Shown here: positions 6,162 to 57,981 of the stretch, one piece after another
How positions within the stretch are numbered: position 1 is the stretch's first letter
Layout: the number at the start of each line of letters is the position of its first letter
IMG/VR virus record: IMGVR_UViG_3300027763_000047
Location: 6,308 to 70,307 of that record
Length of the DNA stretch: 64,000 nucleotides
Reading direction: 5' to 3' (one strand)
Origin: a virus
Lineage: Duplodnaviria > Heunggongvirae > Uroviricota > Caudoviricetes
Translations under genes and position numbers: made by a program
The notes under the pieces: model-generated
The model's input: only the letters and a program-made list of their open reading frames with translations
The model's database searches: none
What the model was told of the DNA's origin: nothing

Positions 6162-7222
6162 AGATTAGATTACTGGGGCAGGCGAACGACAGCGGGATCG
6201 GTACACATTACGATAGATACACCCGAGCTTTACAATCGGTCAATGGATTGAACTCCATACTGGAGTTGTTGGATTTTACCGACGCCGATGCTGTAACGCA
6301 ATCCGCAAAATTAAGCACCGCAGGTGATATTAATATATCATTTGTCTGTGCCAATCTCAACGGATATTTTCGTGGACACAATATTAACTGGGCAGTATTT
6401 GAATCCACCCGCATACCCGATACTTTATATCAGGTAATGAATCAGCATATGCTTTGGTTACCGACAGAATGGGCACGCAAGATAGCCATAGCCCAGGGAA
6501 TTAAACCGGAACAGATAGCTGTGGTACCCGAGGGTGTGGACACTGACCTGTTCCATCCTTACGGCATACCGCAACACGAAGTCTTTAGGTTCCTAACCAT
6601 AGGCAAATACGAACAGCGTAAATCAATTGATGAAACGATTGATGCCTTTGCCCAGGTATATGGCGACAACCCTGAGGTGGAACTGGTGATTAAGTCAGAC
6701 TTTTTTCGTGAGCCCGAAGTTAAATATTACCAGTTGCTGGATAAGATTGCCAGTACCGGGGTCGACAACATACACTTGGTCTGGGGTTATCAGACACACG
6801 ACCAATTGGCCAACCTATATAGATCTGCTGATGTATTCCTAATGCCCACCAAGGCCGAGGGTTGGGGCTTGCCTTTAATTGAAGCTGCTGCCATTGGCTT
6901 ACCCATAGTGACAACGTTCCATGCGGGGCAGACAGAGTTCCTACAGCATATAAGATCCAGTTGTGTGTTTGTTGACTATCAACTGACACCCATAGCCTGT
7001 CCCGAGTACCAGGGATTTTACCCTGCTGCTGACGGTGACTACGGCAAGTGGGCAGTTTCTACTGTGCCGGCTATTGCTAAAGCTATTGAACAAGCGTATA
7101 ATAACTATGCAGCATTAAAGTCACAAGCAGTCAAGAACAGTGATGTTATCCGCACTAAATTCTCCTGGGCCAACAGCGTGACTGCATCATTGAGTACGCT
7201 CAAGCAGTGGGGTATGTTGTAA
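6158..7222 (+). CDS. glycosyltransferase, GT4 / Glycos_transf_1-like
   Basis: PTKAEGWGLPLIEAAAIGLPIVTT (E-x7-E motif); ATGA-coupled start at 6158. Confidence 0.8.
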   Translation: MKIRLLGQANDSGIGTHYDRYTRALQSVNGLNSILELLDFTDADAVTQSAKLSTAGDINISFVCANLNGYFRGHNINWAVFESTRIPDTLYQVMNQHMLWLPTEWARKIAIAQGIKPEQIAVVPEGVDTDLFHPYGIPQHEVFRFLTIGKYEQRKSIDETIDAFAQVYGDNPEVELVIKSDFFREPEVKYYQLLDKIASTGVDNIHLVWGYQTHDQLANLYRSADVFLMPTKAEGWGLPLIEAAAIGLPIVTTFHAGQTEFLQHIRSSCVFVDYQLTPIACPEYQGFYPAADGDYGKWAVSTVPAIAKAIEQAYNNYAALKSQAVKNSDVIRTKFSWANSVTASLSTLKQWGML

Positions 7223-10462: not shown

Positions 10463-13400
10463 TTAATAAAGTTTTGTATAACCATAATTAACTACCACAG
10501 AGTTGCCGCTGGTGTTGTTAATGCTAAAGTCAAATCTATTAGTAGTACTACTTGGAGCAACATTGCTTCTAACTATGGCGTTGGCTGTGCCTATAAATTG
10601 ATTGGGTATGCTGACAAAATCCAACGGTGTACCGCCACCGTTGTAAACCCAAGCATATTGTGTACCCACCACTGGAACATTGGTATTAGTAATGGTAGCT
10701 AGGGCATTCCACGCAATGATGCCGTTGGGTATATTGCCAGTGACCCACATATTATATGTGCCGCTACTTACAGTAAAGCTGTAAGTGTTGGTGCCAGCGG
10801 TTACTGACCAAGAGCCGGTTGTTTGTTGGGCCACATTGGTCAAGCCTGATCCATTACCAACAAAGGTATTAGCAGTAACATTGCCGGCAGCACTGATATT
10901 TGCACCAGAGATGTTGCCAGAAGAGGGTTCAACGGTAGCATAGTTATTATACTTTATATTACCATCATAGAGCATTATACTCATATAACCATTGGAGGTA
11001 ATATCTTGTGTGACTGCTGGAGCTGGTAAACTAGTTAATTGACTACCATTACCTAAAATATAATTGCCAGTAATATTACCGTAGGCACTTAGTGATCCGC
11101 CTGACATACTTGATGGTATCGTAATATCGCCACCACTTACTGTTAATCCTTGTACTCCGGTAATGTTGGCACTGACAACTGTTAGTTCTGACCCAGATGT
11201 TATGTTGCCCGAAACGCTAATATTGCCTTGTTGTATATTAAGATTACTTAGTACATTGCCACTTAAACTTAAATTACCACCATTGATATTTTGTCCATTT
11301 ACATTGGCACCTATTATATTGCCTTCCGCGCTAATGCTACCACCCATGCCGGTATTGGAAGACATTGTAAGATTTCCACCTTCCATTGTAAGGCCATTAA
11401 CACTATAAATGTTAGCGCCATATGCAAAGATGTTGCCACTCAAACTAATATTGCCTGCGGATATATTAGCAGCATTTACATTGCCGCTTATGTTGGCATT
11501 ACTAATAATATTACCTGATAAACTTAGGTTAGCGGCATTAATATCGCCTGAGAAGTTAGCACCAAAAGCATTAAGATATCCGCCGAGGCCAGTAATTTGA
11601 TTAATATTAATATTACCAGCATTGGAAGTAATGCCTGTTACTGTGTCAATTAATAATCCAGAGGCTGTAATGTTACCTGAAGTTGATATTACGTTACTAC
11701 CAAAGTCGCCTAAGAAGTTAGCCACGTTAGCGTTGCCATAATCGCTACCACCAATTGATACCGGGGTACCATTAGCGTAGTTAACTGCAAAAGTATTAGC
11801 TGGTAGAGTCAAGTTGCCTGTGTTACCAAATAACCATTGGTTAATGTTTGGGCCAGCGTTAGTAAAAATACCAACAGAGAAGTCGCTAGTAATACCAAAG
11901 ACGCCTTCGCCTCCGCTTATTGAAGAGTTGTCAGGAAACCTTAAACCACCATTTACACCAAATGTCCATTGTGCTGAGTTACCTACATTGTCATTAGTAT
12001 TAATAACAACGTTACCTGTGTTGGCTAGCTTGACGTACAAGTCATCACTGCCGAAGAACAATTCTGTAGAGTAAAGATTACCCGAAGTCAAGTGCAGATG
12101 ATTGGCATCATTAGTGGTTGGATAAATTAATAACTGTTGATCAGCATTTGTTCCACCTGTTGGCTTTAAAGCAATGGCACTGCCGCTAAGTCCGCCGTCC
12201 GGAATGTTGGTTTCATAGACAACACTATTCAATGGCAAGGTCAAGTTACCAGTAGTGTCAAAGTTCCAAGTCTTTGTGCCACTGACATTACCAGCCTGTA
12301 TGGCCACATTGCCATCCTGTAAAACAGCAACATTGGCTTGTTCATCTGTGCCCAAAATCACATTACCAACGCCACCACCAGCTGCTACATGTATATCCGC
12401 GTTCCCAGTCAAGTAAATATTTAAATACTCATTGCTGGCACCGTTTGGTTGTAGGTTTAAGTTTCCTGTGCCAATGATGTTGACATCATCAAATGTAACA
12501 TTACCTGTATTACCACCTCCGCCACTGAATGTAACAGGATCACCATTGGCATAGTTTACAGCGAATGTATTGGCTGGTAATGTTAAGTTACCAAGGCTAT
12601 CAAATATCCAAGTATTACCAGTTGAAGTGTACCCGTTCCAAGACTGTATGGAAACATTGCCGATTGGAGAAACTCCAACCATCACATTGGCACCAGCATC
12701 TTCACCTAATATAAGACTTCCATCATTGTTGGTAACATGAAGGTCTGGTCCAGAGGTTAGGAAGATGTCCAAATATGAAGCAGCATTGGTAGGATCTGGT
12801 TGTAAGTGTAAGTTACCTGTACCAATGACATTAATATCATTGAATGTTACATTGCCTGTGTTACCACCGCCACCGCCGTATGGACTACCGTTAGCATAGT
12901 TAATACTTGAGTAATTATTTGGTAATGTTATGTTACCGTCAACGCCGAATGTCCAATCAGTCGGAGCAGTATTATTATTACCGGCATTGGCAGCAGTATT
13001 ATATTTGGTTATTACAAATGTTGCCCCACCATTACCAGCAGTCATAGTCAATACATCACCTTCGGAATAACCTGTGCCCGGATCAGTTACACCAACGTTA
13101 ACAACCTGACCACTTAAACCATAACCGTAACCTACTATCATACCTGTACCTGTGCCTCCGGAAATAGCAGAAGAACTTCCGCCACCACCGTAACCACTGC
13201 CACCAGTTAGTAATGTACAGATATTATATTGACCTGTTACTCGTAGTGTCAAGTCGTTTACATTCGGTGCAATGATAGTAGCACTGTTGGGTAGTGTTAA
13301 GTTACCATTTACACCAAAGGCCCATGTATTGGCATTGGCTGTGATATTAACGCTAGTATTACTAGTTTCACTTATTTGGCTACCTTGAGGCAATGTCAAT

Positions 13401-16400
13401 GCACCACTAGCATTAAAATCCCATAGATTAGGACCAGGGCTACCATTTTGTCCTACTGCTATTCTAACAATACCTGATCCTGGAGTAGGGTTAGCATATA
13501 CTGCCGCTATGTTGCTGATGCCAACGTTCGCATAATCTTCTATCCATATGGATACTGCCGCACCATTGGCTCCAGTTGACAATATGGACAGTGGATGATC
13601 CGTAGATGCAATAGAAGCAATATTACCAGCAGGGTCATCAGGTGTGATAACTAAATTACCTGTTGGGAATGTTAAGTTACCAGTAGTGTCAAAGTTCCAC
13701 TGTGCTGAGTTTCCGGTGGCATCATCACTGCCGATCACAACATTGCCGGCGGCTTCTAATTTTACATACTTGATATCGGAGCCAAAGTATTGATCAAAAT
13801 AAGCATTGTTGCCTGTGTCAAGGTGTATGTGTGTGGCAACATCGCCACCACGCACTCGAATATATTGTAAATTGCCCACGCTTTCGGTGCCTGGAGCCAG
13901 GTACAGGCCACTGCTGCCAACTTGATCTCCAGTGCCCACAACAGCTTGATCGTCGAATGTAACGTTGCCTGTGTTGCCGCCGCCACCAGCCGTGTCATAT
14001 GTGATCTCACCAGTAGATGCATCATAATACATGGCATTTGCTGTGTTGGCTTGTCGCACTGGTTTCACTGTGAATGTGTTGACAGTGGTTTGCTCCAGGA
14101 CTGATCCTGTGGCGTTCAATATGATTGAGTTGTTGGCTTGATTGGAGTTGCCGGCTCCGTAGCCAATGGCCACTGCGTATTGGCCCTGTGTGTCTCGCCC
14201 GGCTCCATCACCAACGGCCACGGCCGAGATGCCTTGTGTGTTGTAACCAGCATTTTCGCCAATGGCCACTGCTGAGTTGCCTTGTGTGGTTTGACCAGCT
14301 TCAAAACCAATAGCCACGCCATAGATGCCTTGTGTGGTTTGACCAGCAAGTCTTCCAAATGCTATTGCCGAGGTTCCTTGTGTGGTTGCGCCAGCCCCAA
14401 AACCAATTGCTATTGCCGAGCCACCTTGTGTGGTTTGTCCAGCTCCTTGGCCCACAGCCACCGACGATTCACCTTGTGTGGTTTTACCAGCACTATCACC
14501 GATTGCTACTGATTGGTCACCTTGACTGGTATTACCAGCTTGATAACCAATGGCCACTGATATATTACCTTGATTGACATTACCAGCCGAGTTGCCAATG
14601 GCTACTGCAACCAGGCCTTGATTGGTTAGTCCAGCACCCGAACCAAATGCCACTGCGTCACCCACAGTGTCTTGAATTGTTGCACCGTTTGTGAGTGTGA
14701 TCACGCCTGTGCTGATATTGCCTGCTGTGATATTGCCCGTGGTGCTGATTGGGTTTGATCCTAATGCAGCCAAGTTAGCAACAACATTGGCGTTGCCATA
14801 ACTTGCGGAAATACCAGTCAGTTGACTACCGTTGCCCAGAATATAACTACCAGTGATGTTGCCAACAGCACTGATGTTGCCAGGCACAGTCAAGTTACCA
14901 TCTGTGCCAAAGGTCCATGCATTACCGGCAGTTCTATCCGTGATACTATAATTGTTGCTACCATTGCCAAGAATACCAAAGTCCCATTGCTGAGTTGCGG
15001 TGGCCTGATCCTGCACTGACATATAAGCACTACGCGGAGTATTGTAGTTGTCATCGTAGCCAACCACAGTAATGCCAGGGCCAGCCACAATGCCAAAGTC
15101 TGTGCTTTCTACTCTTGGAGTATTGACCGTTATGTATGGAGTATAATCAACTCGGGGCTGGTAAGCCGTGTTACCGTTAATATCCAATAGACCATCGCCA
15201 TCGAACTGCATGGTGGTGTAGGTATCACCAGGCGTACCGCCTTGATTGGAAAAATCTCCCAACCAATTTATCTGCACCGCTCCAGAGTTGCCGCTAGGAT
15301 AACCACCGTAAGGATCGCCATTGGCATAGTTGATTGATATTTCGCTGTTACCTGGCAGTGTTAAGTTACCATCAGTGTCAAAAGCCCAGTTATAGGTGTT
15401 TGTTCCAATTGATATGTTACCACCGGATTCTAACTTGACATATTTGCTATCATCACCAAAGTATTGATCAAAATAACCATTATCGCCAGTGTCAAGATGT
15501 ATGTGTGTGGCAACATCACCACCACGCACTCTCAAGTATTGTAAATTGCCCGAGCTGTTAGCGCCAGGAGCCAAATACAAGCCACTGCCGCCGATTTCAT
15601 CGCCTGTGCCTACTACAATGTTATTATCAAATGTAACATTACCCGTATTACCGCTACCAGATGGCAGACCAGTTAATTGACTTCCATTGCCTAGGATGTA
15701 ACTTCCGGTAATATTACCAGTTGTTGAAATTACTACGTTACTGTTTGCCAAATATGTAGAAACATCAGCATTTGAGTAACTGGCTGGAAGATTAGTTAAT
15801 TGACTTCCATTACCAACGAAATAATTAGCAGTAATATTGCCGGTAGCAGATACCGTACCTACTGTAAGAACTTCTGTTCCGGAATTATACTTGAATAAAT
15901 TAGAAGTAGTAATATAACCGGTAGAATTAGCAAACGCTACAGCATTAGCATAATAATTAGGAGAGTACAGATTATTTAAAGTAACATCGCCGGCGTTGAT
16001 TGATCCTGTCGTACTAATTGTGTTGGAACCAAAGTTTGCTAAGAAACCAGCAGTATTTGCATTTCCATAATTAGAAGCAATACCAGTTAGCTGACTGCCA
16101 TTGCCAAAGAAATAACTAGCGGTGATATTGCCAGTAGTTGATATATTTGATGTTAATGCTTGTAAGTAAGATGAAACATTGCCATTAGCATATACTTGGC
16201 CTTGTAATGTAGTTATATTACTTGAATTGTTTGAAACATTAGATTGAATACTAATTATAGTATTGTCAGTTGGCAAGTATACGGCTACATTACTGTTACC
16301 ATAACTAGTAGTAACTACAATATTTGATATCAGACCGCCATCACCAATAAAATAGCCACTTGTTGTAATATTACCTACAATAGATAAATTGGCGGTTGAT

Positions 16401-17437
16401 GCTAATTGATATGCCATTCCGGCTACAACAGCTGAGTTGGCATTGTCCGCTTGAACAGCATAAGTTGCTGCGTTAGCTGTTTGTGCTATAGTGGCTGTGT
16501 TAGCAAATGATGCTAAGTTGGCATTGATTGCGAATAAAGCAGTATCAGCATTGATCGCCTGAGTAGCCAATGCTGCTAGATTAGCTACATATGCTGTGTT
16601 AGCAACAAGAGCAAACGGCACATTACCTACAATAGCATTGGCTGTAATGTTAGTGATATTGCTGCCATTGCCATACAGATAATTAGCAGTAACTCTATTA
16701 CCAACAATAGCATTGGCATATACATTCCCGGTTGTTGATACATTACCAGTGATAGATAAGGCAGATATTTGTCCAAAACTAGTTAAGTTTGAATAATTTA
16801 TGCTATTGCTGAATGTATTTCCAAGTAAAGCATTGGCCTGTACATTGGCAATAACATTGGTTAAATTGGCACCATCACCGATGAAAGTAGGTGCTGTAAT
16901 AGCAATTGTGCTATTCCAGCTGTTAGCTGAGTAATTATATGTAAAGTTAGCTCCTGCTATAGGAATTAACAGTCCGCCGCCATTAGCCTGTGCTGCATTG
17001 GCAGCACCGGTTGCTAGTGTAACATTTGAATTAGCAACAGATAAATTAGAATAGTTAACAGTAATAACATTGCCTGTTACCTGCAGGTTACCAGCTACAT
17101 AGACATTACCGGAGAACGTACCGGTGGCAGCGTTTATATATTGAGCGTAAACTGTACTGAAACGATTGGTACCCAACCCAATTGACCGGACATTGGGCAC
17201 ATCTGGTACAAAGTTGGCTGCTGGCACAACAACACCAATGCCATTTGTGGCTAATTGTAAATTGCCATTGTTATTGGTAACCTGTATGGTATTGTTGGCA
17301 ATTGTGATATTGCTGCCCACCGGGCCCGCTGCAAAAAGCTGTGTAAAATTGTAATTGGTGTCGGTAAAAGCTGTACGAAGTGGCGCACCTGTGCCATCGT
17401 TAGCGATATTGCCGGTATTGATAATTATTTGTCCCAT
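10463..17437 (-). CDS. giant tail fiber protein (2324 aa)
   Basis: N-term MGQIIINTGNIANDGTGAPLRTAFTDTNYNFTQLF fiber motif; about 13 S-A-V-A-I-G-x-x-A-G-x-T-T-Q-G repeats; multiple W-x-F-x-x-x-G-N-L-T-L-P and GNGSQLTG modules. Confidence 0.85.
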   Translation of the reverse strand: MGQIIINTGNIANDGTGAPLRTAFTDTNYNFTQLFAAGPVGSNITIANNTIQVTNNNGNLQLATNGIGVVVPAANFVPDVPNVRSIGLGTNRFSTVYAQYINAATGTFSGNVYVAGNLQVTGNVITVNYSNLSVANSNVTLATGAANAAQANGGGLLIPIAGANFTYNYSANSWNSTIAITAPTFIGDGANLTNVIANVQANALLGNTFSNSINYSNLTSFGQISALSITGNVSTTGNVYANAIVGNRVTANYLYGNGSNITNITANAIVGNVPFALVANTAYVANLAALATQAINADTALFAINANLASFANTATIAQTANAATYAVQADNANSAVVAGMAYQLASTANLSIVGNITTSGYFIGDGGLISNIVVTTSYGNSNVAVYLPTDNTIISIQSNVSNNSSNITTLQGQVYANGNVSSYLQALTSNISTTGNITASYFFGNGSQLTGIASNYGNANTAGFLANFGSNTISTTGSINAGDVTLNNLYSPNYYANAVAFANSTGYITTSNLFKYNSGTEVLTVGTVSATGNITANYFVGNGSQLTNLPASYSNADVSTYLANSNVVISTTGNITGSYILGNGSQLTGLPSGSGNTGNVTFDNNIVVGTGDEIGGSGLYLAPGANSSGNLQYLRVRGGDVATHIHLDTGDNGYFDQYFGDDSKYVKLESGGNISIGTNTYNWAFDTDGNLTLPGNSEISINYANGDPYGGYPSGNSGAVQINWLGDFSNQGGTPGDTYTTMQFDGDGLLDINGNTAYQPRVDYTPYITVNTPRVESTDFGIVAGPGITVVGYDDNYNTPRSAYMSVQDQATATQQWDFGILGNGSNNYSITDRTAGNAWTFGTDGNLTVPGNISAVGNITGSYILGNGSQLTGISASYGNANVVANLAALGSNPISTTGNITAGNISTGVITLTNGATIQDTVGDAVAFGSGAGLTNQGLVAVAIGNSAGNVNQGNISVAIGYQAGNTSQGDQSVAIGDSAGKTTQGESSVAVGQGAGQTTQGGSAIAIGFGAGATTQGTSAIAFGRLAGQTTQGIYGVAIGFEAGQTTQGNSAVAIGENAGYNTQGISAVAVGDGAGRDTQGQYAVAIGYGAGNSNQANNSIILNATGSVLEQTTVNTFTVKPVRQANTANAMYYDASTGEITYDTAGGGGNTGNVTFDDQAVVGTGDQVGSSGLYLAPGTESVGNLQYIRVRGGDVATHIHLDTGNNAYFDQYFGSDIKYVKLEAAGNVVIGSDDATGNSAQWNFDTTGNLTFPTGNLVITPDDPAGNIASIASTDHPLSILSTGANGAAVSIWIEDYANVGISNIAAVYANPTPGSGIVRIAVGQNGSPGPNLWDFNASGALTLPQGSQISETSNTSVNITANANTWAFGVNGNLTLPNSATIIAPNVNDLTLRVTGQYNICTLLTGGSGYGGGGSSSAISGGTGTGMIVGYGYGLSGQVVNVGVTDPGTGYSEGDVLTMTAGNGGATFVITKYNTAANAGNNNTAPTDWTFGVDGNITLPNNYSSINYANGSPYGGGGGNTGNVTFNDINVIGTGNLHLQPDPTNAASYLDIFLTSGPDLHVTNNDGSLILGEDAGANVMVGVSPIGNVSIQSWNGYTSTGNTWIFDSLGNLTLPANTFAVNYANGDPVTFSGGGGNTGNVTFDDVNIIGTGNLNLQPNGASNEYLNIYLTGNADIHVAAGGGVGNVILGTDEQANVAVLQDGNVAIQAGNVSGTKTWNFDTTGNLTLPLNSVVYETNIPDGGLSGSAIALKPTGGTNADQQLLIYPTTNDANHLHLTSGNLYSTELFFGSDDLYVKLANTGNVVINTNDNVGNSAQWTFGVNGGLRFPDNSSISGGEGVFGITSDFSVGIFTNAGPNINQWLFGNTGNLTLPANTFAVNYANGTPVSIGGSDYGNANVANFLGDFGSNVISTSGNITASGLLIDTVTGITSNAGNININQITGLGGYLNAFGANFSGDINAANLSLSGNIISNANISGNVNAANISAGNISLSGNIFAYGANIYSVNGLTMEGGNLTMSSNTGMGGSISAEGNIIGANVNGQNINGGNLSLSGNVLSNLNIQQGNISVSGNITSGSELTVVSANITGVQGLTVSGGDITIPSSMSGGSLSAYGNITGNYILGNGSQLTSLPAPAVTQDITSNGYMSIMLYDGNIKYNNYATVEPSSGNISGANISAAGNVTANTFVGNGSGLTNVAQQTTGSWSVTAGTNTYSFTVSSGTYNMWVTGNIPNGIIAWNALATITNTNVPVVGTQYAWVYNGGGTPLDFVSIPNQFIGTANAIVRSNVAPSSTTNRFDFSINNTSGNSVVVNYGYTKLY

Positions 17438-18862: not shown

Positions 18863-19999
18863 ATGGAGAATGTAGTGGACGAGCTTAAAATACGTGAGGA
18901 CGAGGGCAAGCATTATGTGTACTTTAACGGACCTTTTGGATCATGTGCCTACCAGTCAGATGCATTTGATACCTTAGCCGAAGCAGAGGCCTTTCGTCAA
19001 GAGCAACTGGATTCAGCAGATTACTCCGAAAATAATACGGAAAAGATGTATTGCTATTTGTGGCACGAAAAGACCGACATTGACGAATGTAAGTTTGGTG
19101 AACGTTGGGTCAAAGAAGGCCAAGATCCTAAGAAAGAAGTACTCAAGCGTATTAAAGACTCTGTTGGTGTTCGCAAGGACAAGATCAACGACGGCACCAT
19201 TGAACTGGTAGCTATCTGGGACGTTACCGAATTAGCAAAAGAGGTTGGTCGTTTCAAGATACACGGCCGGGTTGACGACTATATCCGTGAACACGTAGGG
19301 TTTCGTAAAGGTACAACAGGCGAAGTTCACACCCTGTCAGCAGTAGATATGGCTTTTAAAGTCAACGAGTTCCTTAAGAAACAGAATCAGCCGTTGATTG
19401 AAGCAGGATTGAGCCAGAATCAGTATAGTGCCGCAGAGAATGTTCTTGCTGCTATTGCAGACGGCAAACGTACTATTGTTGCTGAATTGTGCGCTCGCTT
19501 TGGTAAGACTATTTGGTCAGGTGTGTTGGCAAAAGAAACTAATCGTCCGTTGACTATTGTTGCGTCCTATGTGCTGACAAGTTTTGCATCTTTTAAGAAA
19601 GACCTGAGCGCCTTTGAACAGTTCCGTGACTTTGAATTAATCGATGCCGGTGAAAACGAATGGGAACTTAAGATTGAACAGGCCATTGGCGAAGGTAAAC
19701 AGGCTGTGGTGTTCTTGTCAATGTGTGCTGGTGGCCGCCGACAAGATAAGATCGATTTTCTATTTGGGCAACCTGTGAACAAGTTAGTGATCATTGACGA
19801 AGCTGACTTTGGTGTTCACCAAATTAAACAGAGCACACCACTGATTGAAGCACGTGGTGACGATGACATTGTGGTGCTTATGACTGGTACAAACGGTGAC
19901 AAAGCCGCAAGCATTTGGCCTGTAGATCACTACCTCAGCGTAACCTACCCAGAATTGCTTATGGAGAAACACGCAGATCGCCTGGTTGACACAGTGTGA
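18863..19999 (+). CDS. SF2 helicase N-terminal (ATP-binding) core with a unique N-terminal domain
   Basis: motif I ELCARFGKT, Ia PLTIVAS, II IIDEADF. Confidence 0.65.
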   Translation: MENVVDELKIREDEGKHYVYFNGPFGSCAYQSDAFDTLAEAEAFRQEQLDSADYSENNTEKMYCYLWHEKTDIDECKFGERWVKEGQDPKKEVLKRIKDSVGVRKDKINDGTIELVAIWDVTELAKEVGRFKIHGRVDDYIREHVGFRKGTTGEVHTLSAVDMAFKVNEFLKKQNQPLIEAGLSQNQYSAAENVLAAIADGKRTIVAELCARFGKTIWSGVLAKETNRPLTIVASYVLTSFASFKKDLSAFEQFRDFELIDAGENEWELKIEQAIGEGKQAVVFLSMCAGGRRQDKIDFLFGQPVNKLVIIDEADFGVHQIKQSTPLIEARGDDDIVVLMTGTNGDKAASIWPVDHYLSVTYPELLMEKHADRLVDTV

Positions 20000-20014
20000 T
20001 TTTGGTGCTATAAT
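19986..20014 (+). promoter_or_regulatory. perfect consensus sigma70 promoter
   Basis: ttgacacagtgtgattttggtgctataat. Confidence 0.7.
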
Positions 20015-20045
20015 ATACACATACACTAAGCAAATAGGAACAATT

Positions 20046-21302
20046 ATGTTGAAACACTTTAAGGTAGATGTTAGTAGGCACCTACTTGTAGTAGATGTAG
20101 AGTTCTATCAAATGAACTTAGCATCTGTGGTTGAGATTGCTCGCACAGCAGAACCTGATGCATTCGTAGAGGATGGAGTGTTCCTGCCAGCGTGGAGTAA
20201 GTTTGCCGCTAATCCTGTAAAGGCCAAGGGATTCTTTACCAATATGCTTCAGGCATTATTTGAAGGCAAAGGCGGCGATGACAGTCTCAACGTAGACTAT
20301 CAAACTGGTCGCAAGGCCAAAGAAGGCATGAAGGTTGCTATGATGTTCCTGCCTGGTAGCACAACTAATGCTAACCTACAAGAGATCAAACCCATCGCTG
20401 AACAAGCCCTGCGTGGTTTCCGTGTTGTATTGGTTAGTGGTGCTGAAGATATCAGCAATGCCACAGCAGAGAAGTCTGTTAAGGAAGAGATTGAGAAAGC
20501 AGAGAAAACAGGACAGCACGTTCTGATTCTATCAGCAGGTATGGCACAGCGTAGCTTCAGTATCCCAGAAATCACTGAACTGTACCTTGCCTACGACACG
20601 GGTGACAATGGTGCTACTATACAAAAGATGAGCCGCACACTTACACCACACAAAGCAGGCAAGATAGGCCGTGTAGTTAGCCTGAGTTTTGATCCTAACC
20701 GTGATGACAAGTTCGATGCCATGATGATCGAAACAGCTCAAAACTACAAAAAGAATCACGGCATCAAAGACCTTAAGCAGGCCCTGCGTGATGTGTTACG
20801 CACAGTAGATATCTTTAAGTGCCAACAAGACGGCGCAGTTAAGATTGAGATTGATGAGTATCTAGAGCAGGCATTGTCACGCAAGAGTATTGATCGAGTG
20901 ATTGGTAAGATTGCTCCTGTGAATGATCTGTCTGCTGACGAAGTTCGTGCCCTTGCTGGCGGCAATGTTGATGTGTTTCGTGCCGCACGTAAGGAAGCGG
21001 CTGCACGTGGCAAGACACGCCTAAATGTTGCCAAGAAAAAGTCTGGTGCTAACAAGACTGATGCCAGCGAGAAAGAGTTGAAGTTGGCACGTGAGATGAT
21101 TGTTACAATTAGTCAGAACATTGACATCATTAGGTTCTACGGCGGTAGCACTATTGAAGAAGCCTTTGCCCTAATGGATGCTGATGGTCAGTCTATACAA
21201 GATGACGTCTCGGAACAGTTTGGAGTCCCTTATACCATGGTTAAAGAGTTAGTGCTCACTAACTTTATTAACCGTGATCTGCTTGATCTCAAGTTTGCTT
21301 GA
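20046..21302 (+). CDS. SF2 helicase C-terminal domain-like protein
   Basis: Start moved to ATG 20046 downstream of the promoter; HVLILSAG...ITELYLAYDTG...QKMSRTLTP resembles helicase motifs IV-VI. Confidence 0.55.
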   Translation: MLKHFKVDVSRHLLVVDVEFYQMNLASVVEIARTAEPDAFVEDGVFLPAWSKFAANPVKAKGFFTNMLQALFEGKGGDDSLNVDYQTGRKAKEGMKVAMMFLPGSTTNANLQEIKPIAEQALRGFRVVLVSGAEDISNATAEKSVKEEIEKAEKTGQHVLILSAGMAQRSFSIPEITELYLAYDTGDNGATIQKMSRTLTPHKAGKIGRVVSLSFDPNRDDKFDAMMIETAQNYKKNHGIKDLKQALRDVLRTVDIFKCQQDGAVKIEIDEYLEQALSRKSIDRVIGKIAPVNDLSADEVRALAGGNVDVFRAARKEAAARGKTRLNVAKKKSGANKTDASEKELKLAREMIVTISQNIDIIRFYGGSTIEEAFALMDADGQSIQDDVSEQFGVPYTMVKELVLTNFINRDLLDLKFA

Positions 21303-21331
21303 GTGTAGTTAAAATACAACAGCCTTAGTGG

Positions 21332-21360
21332 TTGACATGGTACCATTTTGGCAGTATAAT
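21332..21360 (+). promoter_or_regulatory. perfect consensus sigma70 promoter
   Basis: ttgacatggtaccattttggcagtataat; leader nearly identical to the 19986 cassette. Confidence 0.7.
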
Positions 21361-21391
21361 TAACACATACACACAAACAGTTGGAACGATT

Positions 21392-22429
21392 ATGTTAAGC
21401 AGAATGAAGTTTGAGATTGAACCACTGGTTGTAGAAATACTTGATCAGTTGCCCGACTCTGTTTGGTCTAGCAAGACCTCAACATTCTTTGATCCTGCAA
21501 TTGGTGGCGGTCAGTTTGTTCGTGCCATTGAACAACGGCTCCGTAATACCGGTCACAGTGATGCTAATATTCGCAGTCGAGTTTTTGGCTTCGAAGAAAG
21601 CGATTTACATATTCGCTTCGCAGTAAATAAGTACAAGCTCGTAGGCCAGTATATTCGTAAGCCCTACGACAAGTTCTTTGAATTGGACAATAGTATGAAA
21701 TTCGATGTAGTCATAGGCAACCCACCCTTTCAAAAATCAGGAGGTACCGCCAAACGTTGGACTCTGTGGGAACAGTTCCTGCAGAAATGTTTGACCCTAG
21801 ATGCAGGGATTGTAACCCTAGTGGTGCCACAAAGCCTGACTAGCCCAGGAGCAGCATTCGATAGTATTAAATCAAGATGCAGGGTATTAAATCTTGCAGT
21901 TAAGCGACATTTTAAGGTAGGATCAACCTTTTGTTATTTCATTGTTGACCTAACACAAGAAGTAACCGAAACATTGTTGATCACCGAAGATGGACAACGT
22001 ATGCTAGATATCAGAAATCTACCATTTGTTCCGGGCGAGGTGACAGACCAATCATTGGCGTTACTTGATAAACTATTATCTAGACAAAAACGGTCATGGT
22101 GGCGCGGTGAACTACACACAAGCAGACAGGATCTTTTCAGCGACACCGGTGAATATTCGGTAATTCACACTAATGCACAAACATTGAAAACAGATACTAT
22201 TCATTCAAATTTGAATAAGATTCGTGTGGTGGTGACTCTTAGTGGTTACCCCAAGTTTCAGGTGATCACCAATGCGTATGCATCACAGGCCACATTCTGG
22301 TGTGAGTTTGAGAGTATTGGGGCCGCGGAGGAATTTGCAGCAGAATGTAATGGAGATGAAATACAAAATATGCTAAATTTATTCAAATGGTCAGGTTGGA
22401 ATAGTCGTGAGGTAATTAGTTTATTGTAA
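21392..22429 (+). CDS. DNA N6-adenine methyltransferase (gamma-like order of motif I then IV)
   Basis: FFDPAIGGGQF (motif I) and VIGNPPFQ (motif IV). Confidence 0.8.
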   Translation: MLSRMKFEIEPLVVEILDQLPDSVWSSKTSTFFDPAIGGGQFVRAIEQRLRNTGHSDANIRSRVFGFEESDLHIRFAVNKYKLVGQYIRKPYDKFFELDNSMKFDVVIGNPPFQKSGGTAKRWTLWEQFLQKCLTLDAGIVTLVVPQSLTSPGAAFDSIKSRCRVLNLAVKRHFKVGSTFCYFIVDLTQEVTETLLITEDGQRMLDIRNLPFVPGEVTDQSLALLDKLLSRQKRSWWRGELHTSRQDLFSDTGEYSVIHTNAQTLKTDTIHSNLNKIRVVVTLSGYPKFQVITNAYASQATFWCEFESIGAAEEFAAECNGDEIQNMLNLFKWSGWNSREVISLL

Positions 22430-22442
22430 ACAAAAATATTGG

Positions 22443-22471
22443 TTGACAATTAAATCACGATAGTCTATAAT
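22443..22471 (+). promoter_or_regulatory. perfect consensus sigma70 promoter
   Basis: ttgacaattaaatcacgatagtctataat. Confidence 0.7.
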
Positions 22472-22555
22472 AGCTGTAACAATTGGAGCAAATATGTACA
22501 TGGACAGACAAAGAATTGTTTGATCACTTTGGTTTAACAGAAGAGGAGGTAAACC

Positions 22556-23020
22556 TTGTTACAGGATCTATCTAATATAATCGATCACATCCGAAATCGT
22601 ACTTACATGGGCGGAGTAGAGCGTGATAAGTTAAGAGTAAAGTCCACAGGTGAAGTATTCACTCCCACTGAACTGGTGCGTGAGATGCTGGAGCAGATTC
22701 CTATCGAACAATTTACGGATCCTACTAAAACTTTTCTAGATCCCAGTTGCGGAGATGGCCAGTTCTTAGGAGAAGTCCTAATCCGTAAGATGGAAAATGG
22801 TAGTACCTTTGAACAAGCGTTATCTACTACATACGGTGTTGATCTAATGCAAGACAACGTAGACTTATGCCGTAAGCGATTGTTATGCGGCAGAGAAGAT
22901 CTGCGACACATTGTTGAACGCAACATAGTCTGTCACGATGCACTGACCTATGACTATAGCTTTAACGGAACCAACATGAACCAGAATGATCTAACCTGGA
23001 ATCAACTATTTGAAATATGA
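22556..23020 (+). CDS. truncated methyltransferase-like protein (AdoMet-binding N-half only)
   Basis: TTG start with GAGGAGG RBS; motif X EVFTPTELV and motif I FLDPSCGDGQF; no NPPY/F motif. Confidence 0.5.
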   Translation: MLQDLSNIIDHIRNRTYMGGVERDKLRVKSTGEVFTPTELVREMLEQIPIEQFTDPTKTFLDPSCGDGQFLGEVLIRKMENGSTFEQALSTTYGVDLMQDNVDLCRKRLLCGREDLRHIVERNIVCHDALTYDYSFNGTNMNQNDLTWNQLFEI

Positions 23021-23065
23021 AATTTGGTGGTGTAATTGGCAATGCGCGGACTACATCTATATCTC

Positions 23066-23094
23066 TTGACATTCAATTGTTGGTTAGTTAAAAT
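23066..23094 (+). promoter_or_regulatory. sigma70-type promoter
   Basis: ttgacattcaattgttggttagttaaaat. Confidence 0.65.
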
Positions 23095-23119
23095 ATAAGA
23101 ATAACCTAACGGAAATAAA

Positions 23120-23896
23120 ATGAGAGTAAACGTAATTTCGGATTTGCATTTAGAGTTCAGTACGGACTTCACACTACCCGGCGGTGAGGTCTTGATCTTG
23201 GCTGGTGATTTATGCGAGGCCAAGAACTTAAAACATGCCAATTATCAAGATTGGATTTTTGAGAACCTTACCAAGTATCGTGATGTGTTGTATGTCTTGG
23301 GTAACCATGAAAGTTATGGTATGCGGATCGATAGAACAAAGGAACTGGTTGAAGAATACATGCCGGACAATGTTCGCGTGATGGAAAACCAAACACACAT
23401 CATTGATGATGTTGTGTTTGTGGGTGGGACACTCTGGACAGATATGAATAAAGGTGACCCCATGACTTCCCTACGTTGCCGTGAAGGTATGTCGGACTAT
23501 AAACATATCACCATGCACAACCGAGCAAAGGATGTGTATCATAAGCTCACGCCCGAGCATACCACTGTGCTGCATCGTGCCACAAGGGATCACATCATTG
23601 AGACCGCGCAGGCTAATAAGGACCGAAAGGTGGTAATGATCACGCATATGCTACCCAGTATGGCAGCTATCTCGGAACAATATCGAGAAGACTACCATTT
23701 GAATGGTGCATTTGCATCGGACCTGGATTACATCTTTATGGAGAATCCCAACATCAAGGTGGCCGTATTCGGGCATACACATGACTTTAAAGACTTTGTA
23801 GTGGGCGAAACTCGCTTGTTGTGTAATCCGCGTGGGTACGCTGGTTATGAACAACGAGTACAGGAGTTTGATCCAGCCTTTGGATTTGACATTTAA
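23120..23896 (+). CDS. calcineurin-like metallophosphoesterase
   Basis: ISDLHLE, LAGDL, VLGNHE motifs. Confidence 0.75.
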   Translation: MRVNVISDLHLEFSTDFTLPGGEVLILAGDLCEAKNLKHANYQDWIFENLTKYRDVLYVLGNHESYGMRIDRTKELVEEYMPDNVRVMENQTHIIDDVVFVGGTLWTDMNKGDPMTSLRCREGMSDYKHITMHNRAKDVYHKLTPEHTTVLHRATRDHIIETAQANKDRKVVMITHMLPSMAAISEQYREDYHLNGAFASDLDYIFMENPNIKVAVFGHTHDFKDFVVGETRLLCNPRGYAGYEQRVQEFDPAFGFDI

Positions 23897-55701: not shown

Positions 55702-57981
55702 ATGCAAAACAACAAAGAAATTGAAGCAATTGTAGGGCAGGCGGTTTCGATTGCTCGGATTAAACATCACGAGTATGTGCTAACCGAACATATATTATTG
55801 GCCTTAATACGCCACATTCCTTTCCGCAAAGTACTGGAAGGATTCGGTACAAGTATTGCACTCATGGACGAGGAATTAGATGTCTATTTGGACAGTTTAA
55901 CCAGTATAGTTACATCTAAGTCAGAATTTCAACCACGTAAAACTAACGCCCTTGAACGTTGTTTTAATCGGGCTATGACACAGGTGTTATTTACTGGCCG
56001 CCGTTCAGTAACCACATTTGATTTGTATCTTGCTATGATGAGTGAGACAAACAGTCACGCACATTACTTCCTGATGAAGTATGGAGTTAAGAAAGCCGAG
56101 TTTATGGAATACTGGCAGCAAAATTATAAAGCTGAAGATGCCGAGGTTAGTGCTTCTGAAGCTGATGCCATCTTAACTGAATTTTGTACAAACCTAACCA
56201 AAATGGCTACTGAAGATAAGTTAGAGCCAATGATTGGCCGCTCAGCTGAACTAGACGAAATCATTACTGTACTGGCTCGAAAGTTTAAAGCTAACGTACT
56301 AATGGTGGGCGATCCGGGTGTAGGCAAAACTGCCATCGCAGAAGGGCTTGCCCAGGAAATTGTAAACAACCGTGTACCCGCATTCCTTAACGGACATGAA
56401 GTATGGAGTTTGGAAATCGGCTCATTGTTAGCCGGCAGTAAGTATCGTGGCGAATTTGAGGAAAAGTTTAAACAGGTCATTGGTGCATTAGAAGCCAAGA
56501 AAAATTGTATCTTATTTGTTGATGAAGCACATACAATGAAAGGCGCTGGCGCAAGTTCACAATCATCACTAGACTTTGCTAATATGCTAAAGCCAGCTAT
56601 TACCAAGGGTTATCTTAAGGTAATTGCGTCAACTACCTGGGAAGAATTCTATGAGTCATTTGAAAAGGATCGTGCGCTAATGCGTCGATTCCATCGTGTG
56701 TCCATTGACGAACCCACGCCAGAAGTAACGGAGCAAATCTTAATCGGCTTATCACCTCGCTTGGAAAAATTCCACGATGTGTTGATTGATACTGATGCTA
56801 TTAAAGCAGCAGTAGACTTGTCGGGTCGTTACATACATGATCGCAAGAATCCAGATAAGTCAATTGACTTGCTAGACGGTGCATGTGCCAAGGAACGTGT
56901 TAAAGATATAGGCACTACTACTGTGACTAAAGACATGATCATGGCACAGTTGAGTCGTATTACTGAGGTTCCCATGGATCGTTTACAAAACGAACGTTCG
57001 GCTAATATTGTGGAACTGGAAGGTAATATTAAACAGAAGTTGTATGGCCAAGACGAAGCTGTTAATTCGGTACTTGAGCGGGTATACATTAACTTCTCGG
57101 GTATTGGTAACGAAAACAAACCAATTGCCAGCTTCTTATTCTTGGGACCAACTGGCACAGGTAAGACAGAATTGGCCAAGTTATTGGCTGAGCATTTAGA
57201 TATGCAGTTGTTGAAATATGACATGAGTGAGTTCCAGGAGAAGCATACTGTTAGCTCATTGATTGGTGCTCCCCCAGGATACGTTGGGTTTGAAGATGGT
57301 AATGTGGGTGGTGGAAAACTTATTAGTGATGTCAGTAAGAACCCTTATTCAATCTTGTTGTTTGATGAAATTGAAAAGGCACATCCGGATGTAGTTAACC
57401 TTATGTTGCAAATGTTGGATGAAGCTCGCATCACCAGTGCCAATGGTAAAACTGTTAACCTGAAGAACTGCATCATTATTATGACCAGTAACTTAGGTGC
57501 TCGCGACAATGAGAATAACAACATTGGCTTTGGGCAGACACTGGAAAAGACAGGATCAGAACACAAGGCAATGAAGGATTTCTTTAAACCTGAATTACGT
57601 AATCGTATTGATCAAATCTGTCGCTTTAAGAAACTAGATACACTGGCTGTTAAGAAAATTGTTGTTAAATTTGTTGATCAACTACAAACCAGTTTAAGCA
57701 CAAAGAATATTCGTCTTAACTTATCCGAGCCAGTAATCGACATGCTGGTTGAAAAAGGCTATGATAACAAGATGGGTGCTCGACCATTAAATCGTAAGAT
57801 TGATGAACTTATTCGCGTACCATTGAGTAAGAAAATTCTCTTTGAACGATTAAGTGACTGTGTAATTACAGCGGACATGGTTAATGATCAAATTGACTTT
57901 ATCATCATACCTAATCCCGCATTAGCTATTGTCGACAACTCAGGAATTATTTTACTTGATGGCGAATCTTCCACCGTTTAA
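55702..57981 (+). CDS. ClpA-like AAA+ unfoldase (two AAA domains)
   Basis: Clp-N LTEHILLALI; D1 GDPGVGKTAIAEGLA; D2 GPTGTGKTELAKLLAE, LLFDEIEKAHPDV; 759 aa. Confidence 0.85.
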   Translation: MQNNKEIEAIVGQAVSIARIKHHEYVLTEHILLALIRHIPFRKVLEGFGTSIALMDEELDVYLDSLTSIVTSKSEFQPRKTNALERCFNRAMTQVLFTGRRSVTTFDLYLAMMSETNSHAHYFLMKYGVKKAEFMEYWQQNYKAEDAEVSASEADAILTEFCTNLTKMATEDKLEPMIGRSAELDEIITVLARKFKANVLMVGDPGVGKTAIAEGLAQEIVNNRVPAFLNGHEVWSLEIGSLLAGSKYRGEFEEKFKQVIGALEAKKNCILFVDEAHTMKGAGASSQSSLDFANMLKPAITKGYLKVIASTTWEEFYESFEKDRALMRRFHRVSIDEPTPEVTEQILIGLSPRLEKFHDVLIDTDAIKAAVDLSGRYIHDRKNPDKSIDLLDGACAKERVKDIGTTTVTKDMIMAQLSRITEVPMDRLQNERSANIVELEGNIKQKLYGQDEAVNSVLERVYINFSGIGNENKPIASFLFLGPTGTGKTELAKLLAEHLDMQLLKYDMSEFQEKHTVSSLIGAPPGYVGFEDGNVGGGKLISDVSKNPYSILLFDEIEKAHPDVVNLMLQMLDEARITSANGKTVNLKNCIIIMTSNLGARDNENNNIGFGQTLEKTGSEHKAMKDFFKPELRNRIDQICRFKKLDTLAVKKIVVKFVDQLQTSLSTKNIRLNLSEPVIDMLVEKGYDNKMGARPLNRKIDELIRVPLSKKILFERLSDCVITADMVNDQIDFIIIPNPALAIVDNSGIILLDGESSTV

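Follow-up and report, generated by a model that had tools for sequence, protein, structure and literature searches.

How the permuted alpha, beta and gamma motif orders of DNA methyltransferases arose has so far been argued from models and laboratory constructs, with permutation by duplication set against fission and fusion. Gamma-class enzymes carry motif I, motif IV and the target recognition domain (TRD) in the order I-IV-TRD (class definitions in PMC7544214). PMC5944983 cites experimental support for permutation by duplication (Jeltsch 1999), and PMC3320104 summarizes the model. PMC5944983 also cites M.AquI, a naturally split C5-cytosine methyltransferase made of alpha and beta subunits. 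Domains move between methyltransferases (PMC3467074), and Type I systems are modular in HsdS and HsdM (PMC6158711). Here we examine two neighboring open reading frames (ORFs) in a 64,000-nt stretch of viral DNA (Caudoviricetes; IMG/VR record IMGVR_UViG_3300027763_000047, positions 6,308 to 70,307), hereafter the window. Coordinates count from its first letter, and both ORFs lie on the + strand, ORF1 at 21392-22429 and ORF2 at 22556-23020; both sets of coordinates were re-confirmed. We consider it somewhat probable that ORF2 is a functional stand-alone S-adenosylmethionine (SAM)-binding half, a trans-acting subunit of a modular split or permuted methyltransferase. With the same degree of confidence, we propose that in large aquatic phages it is the unvarying member of a pair whose other, hypervariable gene lies upstream and supplies the catalytic half (motif IV NPPY to motif VIII) and the TRD.

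ORF2 encodes 154 amino acids from a TTG start and reads as a stand-alone half-domain with motifs X, I, II and III (strands beta1-beta3). Among 59 diverse homologs, motif X, GEVFTP (22649-22666), has two invariant residues, F35 and T36, and two that are at least 90% conserved, E33 and P37. In motif I, FLDPSCGDGQF (22733-22765), G66 is invariant in the same set and D62, D67 and G68 are at least 90% conserved. The elements GEVFTP, DPSCGDGQF, YGVD and NIVCxD are kept in these 59 homologs and in 100 ORF2 sequences derived from related loci. The catalytic motif IV, searched for as [NDS]PP[YFW], is absent from ORF2 and from 97 of 100 unique homologs. The three exceptions have SPPY within RYHYRFD.SPPYD right after motif III, with no motifs V-VIII behind it. 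The Pfam N6_Mtase profile matches ORF2 above its cut-off (E = 2e-6, 27.8 bits; cut-off 20.4) over profile positions 22-118 of 311 only. An AlphaFold2 model (predicted local distance difference test 86.5, predicted TM score [pTM] 0.79) has N-terminal helices, the three strands beta1-beta3 and a low-confidence tail. Neither the Pfam coverage nor the model revealed strands beta4-beta7 (motifs V-VIII) or a TRD in ORF2. Foldseek searches with the model returned only the N-terminal half (N-half) of gamma-class N6-adenine enzymes (CamA, BsaXI, HsdM, PglX, MmeI), and the nearest solved protein by sequence is M.BseCI (E = 0.01). Because ORF2 stops after motif III, without motifs IV-VIII and a TRD, it cannot be a methyltransferase by itself and should not be annotated as one.

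Short ORF2-like proteins are abundant. A word-indexed protein search gave more than 7,991 close matches; the best 120 are all 137-169 amino acids long, are 83-100% identical to ORF2, come from aquatic metagenomes and are often mislabeled. Of 1.84 billion cluster representatives, searched exhaustively with HMMER, 2,915 match ORF2 at E ≤ 1e-3 and 872, from clusters defined at 50% identity, at E ≤ 1e-10. Among the best 150 of these matches, 143 are under 300 amino acids. ORF2 also matches phrog_4376 (E = 2.4e-21, positions 7-124 of 134), phrog_21201 (E = 8e-18, positions 6-119 of 156) and phrog_11371 (383 positions, E = 4e-20), where the domain is C-terminal. Across 562 pairs drawn from 100 unique coding sequences at related loci, the ratio of nonsynonymous to synonymous substitution rates (dN/dS) is 0.10-0.15; against the closest relative, L051, it is 0.044. 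ORF2 is thus under strong purifying selection. ORF2 proteins conserve a family-specific N-terminal extension, HIRNRxYMSGVERD, and 78 of 100 family sequences have a C-terminal ...LF motif. Gene callers differ on the start: P0009 and P0036 are 137 amino acids long and begin at the internal Met18. The residues before Met18 (IIDHIRNRTY) are conserved family-wide at the protein level, which favors the TTG start at 22556. About a quarter of the homologs (L015-L018, L021, L029, L034, L039, L071 and others) carry a Lys/Glu/Arg-rich C-terminal extension of 40-90 amino acids, probably coiled or disordered, inserted ahead of a terminal ...KLFG; the ORF2 of the window has none.

ORF1 (345 amino acids) is by sequence a complete N6-adenine DNA methyltransferase with the gamma order X-I-(II,III)-IV-...-TRD on one polypeptide. 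Its motif I, read from the sequence as FFDPAIGGGQF (21485-21517, residues 32-42), is the SAM-binding Gly loop and is identical in the window, L004 and L006. Motif IV, NPPF (21719-21730, residues 110-113), is the catalytic loop and the left recombination boundary of a variable cassette; after it come a variable C-terminal half and the TRD, about 230 amino acids together. ORF1 matches Pfam Eco57I (E = 2.8e-8, 34.5 bits; cut-off 25.3) and phrog_3689, "DNA methyltransferase" (5e-15), and scores slightly under the N6_Mtase cut-off (18.4 against 20.4 bits). The protein P0271 is 100% identical to ORF1 and is present on six metagenome contigs, and full-length ORF1 homologs form a family of 339-348 amino acids. 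The dN/dS of the ORF1 N-half, 0.17-0.27, indicates purifying selection. This N-half is intact, and ORF1 is probably active by itself. We also considered that ORF1 is C-terminally truncated, as some relatives have 380-392 amino acids and a tail relic lies downstream. This was rejected, as the 339-348-residue family natively ends in ...KWSGWNSxEVIxxL followed by a stop. Across the 64 kb, [NDS]PP[YFW] occurs in an ORF of methyltransferase size (366 codons) in ORF1 only; two other matches, in ORFs of 82-86 codons, are chance. This motif IV scan thus found no orphan catalytic half for ORF2 to serve within the window besides ORF1.

An earlier note on this DNA, made by a model from the letters and an ORF list, had anticipated part of this description. 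Its assignment of ORF1 as an N6-adenine methyltransferase with motif I and NPPF is borne out by the location of both motifs and the Eco57I match. The motif scan and the partial N6_Mtase match likewise agree with its observation that ORF2 retains motifs X and I without NPP[YF]. The promoter and strong ribosome-binding site that it attributed to ORF2 are both present: a perfect TTGACA-N17-TATAAT and GAGGAGG 6 nt before the start. Its term "paralog" holds in a distant, superfamily sense and is otherwise overstated, as ORF1 and ORF2 align by BLASTP at 33% identity across 57 residues, only around motifs X and I. Gamma-order single chains with an ORF2-type N-half exist (P0242, P0247), so ORF2 may derive from a methyltransferase lineage other than that of ORF1.

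A DNA search of 50,697 deposited phage genomes, in near and distant modes, found no relatives of the locus. We therefore took genomic context from metagenome and IMG/VR contigs, which yielded 127 related loci. At about 103 of the 127, the start of the ORF2 homolog is overlapped by 5-44 nt, usually 20 nt, by the end of an ORF that bears NPP[YF] and then a variable region; at most of the others a contig end truncates the locus. The overlap is found at essentially all loci for which enough upstream sequence is available. In the window, by contrast, a 126-nt gap separates ORF1 from ORF2. The pairing also holds from the other side: three ORF1 homologs (48-62% identity) were each found to have an ORF2 homolog of 147-150 amino acids overlapping their stop (3/3).

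The ORF upstream of ORF2 comes in several forms. Motif I is canonical (DPAxGGGQF or DPSCGRG) at 33 loci, including the lineage of the window. A mixed group of 41 loci has either a variant AxGHGTE loop or an N-terminal part from which the entire Gly loop and helix A are missing; what we call C-type genes carry this deletion. The N-half is fully absent at about 10 loci, and at 18 the upstream ORF is fused to a helicase-like gene (about 1000 amino acids). The upstream ORF of L107 has no N-half: it opens with MKFNNLVGNPPF, immediately behind an unrelated gene, and the upstream ORFs of L027, L043 and L044 are similar. Given these Gly-loop deletions and complete absences, the N-half of the upstream gene is dispensable. 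Catalytic subunits without a SAM half of their own thus occur at L107, L027, L043 and L044 and among the C-type genes, and not in the window, where the ORF1 N-half is canonical.

The two parts also occur as one protein. In P0165, P0227, L049 and a protein of Aeromonas phage 65.2, a single chain has the order IV-TRD-tail-X-I-III. At L043 (60-4463), three tandem NPPY/TRD genes, with N-halves that are Gly-loop-less or absent, are followed by one ORF2 homolog. After that homolog comes a Dam-like (alpha-order) methyltransferase gene; the region is an island of methyltransferase genes that includes one SAM-half gene only. Cyanophage ACG-2014f encodes a 134-residue ORF2 homolog two genes upstream of a methyltransferase whose N-terminal part lacks the GxG loop. 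Between the ORF2-like gene and the methyltransferase of this Synechococcus phage lies a hypothetical gene of 200 amino acids (L001, 2968-3570) reading ...YGVDGFGKY...VAVQIKYKS..., which resembles a PD-(D/E)xK (Mrr-like) nuclease motif; the trio may be a phage-borne system resembling restriction-modification (R-M). In phage NatCom_35866 from the human gut (L003, 2486-4781), an annotated DNA methyltransferase gene is immediately preceded and overlapped by the gene for a 260-residue protein. This protein has an ORF2-like N-half, lacks NPPY and carries a long tail rich in acidic residues and Lys; the gene order is the opposite of that in the aquatic phages.

These gene orders, fusions and loss patterns make association in trans the most likely mechanism. 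The ORF2 protein would associate with catalytic/TRD polypeptides, its beta1 edge pairing with beta4 of the partner and so delivering the SAM pocket. Two genes would thereby encode one enzyme in beta order (IV-TRD | X-I-III). An AlphaFold2 model of an artificial chimera of ORF1 residues 101-345 and ORF2 had confident halves and a pTM of just 0.60, and fold searches with it returned gamma-class enzymes only. The loci could then be arranged as stages of a circular permutation: a complete gamma-order gene with an additional N-half beside it, as in the window; an upstream N-half that has lost its Gly loop; an upstream gene without an N-half, which would be a true split enzyme; and one fused beta-order protein. 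The window itself is a derived state: a recent exchange gave ORF1 a new catalytic/TRD cassette, reaching from motif IV to a point shortly ahead of the former C-terminal tail. With it came a stop and a promoter, which left ORF2 translationally uncoupled and transcribed from its own perfect promoter. There, ORF2 could be an obligatory partner, could serve catalytic subunits encoded at other sites of the genome, or could act as a conserved flank for cassette exchange.

We hold a broader proposal as a serious, still tentative possibility. It describes a modular enzyme with one universal and highly conserved SAM-binding subunit, the ORF2 family, and interchangeable catalytic/recognition subunits swapped between motif IV and ORF2. 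The arrangement would be found in large aquatic phages and, independently, in T4-like cyanophages and Aeromonas phages. The enzyme would be split in the middle of the Rossmann sheet, and the living family would hold every intermediate from gamma to beta order.

Several observations weigh against ORF2 as a simple complementing half. Where the upstream gene has a canonical N-half of its own, as in the window and roughly one locus in three, that N-half is itself under purifying selection and simple complementation is not required. The dN/dS of ORF2 beside complete genes is similar to that elsewhere (0.097 vs 0.107, from a rough classification with few unsaturated pairs); this equal constraint suggests, tentatively, that ORF2 does more than supply a missing half. 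The conserved ...LF tail does not fit a clean half-plus-half picture, and a sister subfamily has an FDGS[HP]PY segment at the expected site of motif IV, which may mean that ORF2 proteins keep a vestigial beta4/motif-IV segment. Most of the 127 loci were gathered with ORF2 as the query, an ascertainment bias that the reciprocal test answers in part. Given these points, ORF2 may in addition be needed as a partner by complete enzymes, or may have a regulatory role.

The exchange of the ORF1 cassette is visible in DNA alignments. The window is 89-94% identical to L051 (whose ORF2 is 99% identical) and L004 up to 21730-21735, the NPPF codons; across L051, L004 and L062, DNA homology ends at 21726-21735. 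By blastn, no similarity to L051 or L004 is detectable from there until 22496-22501, after which identity is again 88-94%, and the proteins of the window and its relatives cannot be aligned beyond NPP[FY]. Since similarity stops at the NPPF codons and resumes at 22496-22501, the segment 21736-22495 (+ strand), with motifs V-VIII and the TRD and no DNA homology to the nearest relatives, is a swapped-in cassette. Proteins of the same cassette family, ending in ...KWSGWNSxEVIxxL and a stop, occur at L036/P0340, L131, L133, L135 and P0343 behind N-terminal parts that are canonical, GHxTE-type, Gly-loop-less or short. Motif IV thus works as a recombination joint, as one cassette family follows differing N-terminal parts.

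The incoming cassette carries its own stop (22427-22429) and the standard gene-start module of this phage (TGGTTGACA-N17-TATAAT...TTGGAGC...ATG). The ATG of the inserted module opens a mini-ORF of nine codons, MYMDRQRIV (22494-22523, + strand), probably a by-product of the junction. Behind it, on the same strand at 22501-22575 and out of the ORF1 frame, is a relic of the former methyltransferase C-terminus, the last 24 codons WTDKELFDHFGLTEEEVNLVTGSI and a stop. At L004 and L048 the intact methyltransferase ends in ...WTDKELFN[YH]FGLTE[EG]EVNLVT[KG]S[IA] and a stop, overlapping ORF2 by 20 nt. The relic is now the 5' leader of ORF2. It survives because it holds the ribosome-binding site and start of ORF2: GAGGAGG (22543-22549, + strand) is encoded within it ("EEE").

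A second relic follows ORF2. The nine codons MKFGGVIGN (23017-23043, + strand) begin with an ATG that overlaps the ORF2 stop (ATGA), and the same site reads MKFDVVISN at L004 and L005 and MKFGVVIEN at L062. In a six-frame scan of the window, the relic pattern occurs at two places, here and at motif IV of ORF1, against 0.145 expected. Past the nine codons the frame degenerates into ARTTSISLDIQLLVS and a stop, with no PP[YF], and runs into the next promoter (23066-23094). The relic is probably what remains of the 5' end of a lost gene, one whose coding sequence opened at motif IV and was once translationally coupled to ORF2. None of the 127 loci has an intact version of such a gene.

The ORF2 promoter is a perfect sigma-70-type TTGACA-N17-TATAAT (22443-22471, + strand). 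Relatives lack it, and in them the methyltransferase ORF reads through its position. The window contains nine such perfect sites, against 0.23 expected, including a 12/12 match ahead of ORF1 (21332-21360, + strand); four of the nine start with TTGACAATTAA. Four consecutive genes share a gene-start module (19983-20048, 21329-21394, 22440-22496 and 23063-23122), laid out as TGGTTGACA-N17-TATAAT, about 20 nt (with ACACATACAC in two copies), TTGGA[AG]C and then ATG. The module has the appearance of a promoter cassette that is mobile or has been recruited repeatedly.

Upstream, a helicase-like gene (18863-21302, + strand), with Walker A and DEAD-like motifs in its translation, is syntenic with the methyltransferase module. 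It is split in the window into 18863-19999 (378 amino acids) and 19986-21302 (438 amino acids), with a perfect promoter (19986-20014) exactly at the split. L004 has the same split, and L006, L131 and L135 have a single ORF of 735-739 amino acids. In L016-18, L021-22, L039 and L047, the helicase-like and methyltransferase genes are fused in frame into about 1000 amino acids, with NPPY at about 712-745. Downstream, the promoter at 23066-23094 and a calcineurin-like phosphoesterase gene (23120-23896), both on the + strand, leave no space for a catalytic half 3' of ORF2. Elsewhere, the window encodes a ClpA/B-like ATPase of 759 amino acids (55702-57981; phrog_4871, E = 3e-232) and, on the minus strand, a 2324-residue ORF (10463-17437). 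Some related loci sit on contigs of 275-400 kb and therefore belong to large phages. The source of the window is probably a jumbo phage without a representative among the deposited phage genomes searched.

The conservation of ORF2 can be read in other ways. The protein conserves all SAM-contact motifs and lacks the catalytic one, is equally constrained beside complete methyltransferases that have no need of it, and has its own strong promoter in the window; in a cyanophage its homolog does not adjoin the presumed partner. All this would suit a SAM-binding regulator, sensor or decoy outside any active site, which we nevertheless regard as unlikely. On this reading, ORF2 would bind SAM or mimic the N-terminal domain of host enzymes of the HsdM/PglX type and either tune its neighbor or disrupt SAM-dependent host defenses. 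Its fold matches do include HsdM and PglX of the bacteriophage exclusion (BREX) system; these matches, however, reflect the generic class-I fold, with TM-scores of about 0.4-0.5. Three features argue instead for a structural role in an enzyme: ORF2 overlaps the 3' end of an NPPY/TRD gene almost everywhere, in-frame fusions to such genes occur, and some partners have no SAM half. Of the earlier suggestion that ORF2 is a SAM-binding regulatory or decoy subunit, the SAM-binding-subunit part thus comes close to the reading that appears best supported.

It is more doubtful still that ORF2 is an accessory subunit of a helicase-coupled DNA-modification complex, where it would not complete the Rossmann fold and would serve, for example, in dimerization or DNA clamping. 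The order of helicase-like gene, methyltransferase and ORF2 is conserved, about 18 loci have a helicase-methyltransferase ORF of about 1000 amino acids followed by ORF2, and both the HIRNRxYMSGVERD extension and the C-terminal ...LF are conserved, as such a machine might lead one to expect. At L027 and L107 and beside the Aeromonas phage fusion, however, no helicase gene adjoins the pair.

The two relics flanking ORF2, one of a motif-IV start and one of a methyltransferase tail, show that the locus was hit by deletions and replacements, and one could imagine ORF2 as another such remnant. That it is a non-functional, degenerating duplicate, as the earlier note proposed, is very improbable. Its dN/dS is about 0.1 over the 562 pairs and lower against L051, it is remote from ORF1, and its promoter and ribosome-binding site are intact. 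The short form recurs in at least 872 clusters, and thousands of sequences, along with several PHROG families, share its length and end point, so there is no local truncation either. We can dismiss as scarcely credible that a frameshift from sequencing or assembly has cut ORF2 off from the rest of a longer methyltransferase gene, the artifact named earlier as a possible refutation: the +1-frame MKFGGVIGN immediately past the ORF2 stop amounts to nine motif-like codons before the frame breaks down, the promoter at 23066 leaves no space for a catalytic half of about 200 amino acids plus a TRD, and the independent assemblies L051, L004, L005 and L062 have the same architecture. The degenerating-duplicate and artifact readings are therefore rejected, and ORF2 as a SAM-binding subunit is the best-supported reading, although unproven.

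This phage family offers natural examples of each proposed permutation stage, numerous and under purifying selection, and the permutation pathway thereby becomes testable with natural gene pairs. Thousands of short metagenome proteins annotated as "N-6 DNA methylase" or "type I R-M methylase subunit" are not methyltransferases alone. Methylation specificity in this group of phages likely shifts by cassette exchange, which is relevant to predicting how they evade host restriction. The searchable literature, which is incompletely covered, holds no description of the ORF1-ORF2 gene pair; this is weak evidence of novelty.

Compared with known systems, ORF1 is an ordinary member of the gamma class (M.TaqI, M.BseCI, CamA; PF02384, PF07669), with its I-IV-TRD order and NPPF. 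ORF2 resembles the SAM-binding N-terminal part of gamma-class enzymes, in sequence that of M.BseCI and in predicted fold those of CamA, BsaXI and HsdM, and differs from these enzymes in ending after motif III, without motifs IV-VIII and a TRD. Like beta-class enzymes (IV-TRD-I; M.PvuII, M.RsrI, CcrM), the pair reads IV-...-TRD | X-I-III, and exactly this beta order is found on one chain in P0165, P0227, L049 and the protein of Aeromonas phage 65.2. However, sequence affinity here is to the gamma class, no beta-class structure is among the fold matches, and the window has two separate genes, with an N-half in ORF1 itself. ORF2 matches all three PHROG families 4376, 21201 and 11371, of which 4376 and 21201 are likewise short. 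Two of the three are annotated "unknown function" and one "DNA methyltransferase"; neither the lack of a catalytic half nor the pairing of genes is recorded for any of them.

Three precedents come nearest: TRD shuffling in R-M systems, M.AquI, which is split at another point, and the permutation intermediates made in the laboratory. As in the shuffling of R-M specificity, a variable recognition module is exchanged here between conserved flanks: motif IV on the left, the C-terminal tail and ORF2 on the right. Here, however, the exchanged unit adds the catalytic half (IV-VIII) to the TRD, and the conserved right flank would be a separate SAM-binding gene. As with M.AquI as cited in PMC5944983, a DNA methyltransferase would form from two polypeptides of adjacent genes, the assembly being deduced here from the genes. 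Unlike M.AquI, this would be an amino-methyltransferase, split between motifs III and IV through the Rossmann sheet.

A further parallel is with permutation by duplication. The order [N-half][C-half+TRD][N-half'] in the window corresponds to the predicted partially truncated tandem intermediate, and the relatives resemble later steps, in which the first N-half decays or is lost and fusion follows. The window differs in that its two N-halves are no recent duplicates; such an origin was considered and rejected on the low BLASTP identity given above (33% over 57 residues). Taken as a series, the loci match the intermediates expected under permutation by duplication and under fission and fusion (PMC3320104; PMC5944983 and its references to Jeltsch 1999 and the experimental test of that model).

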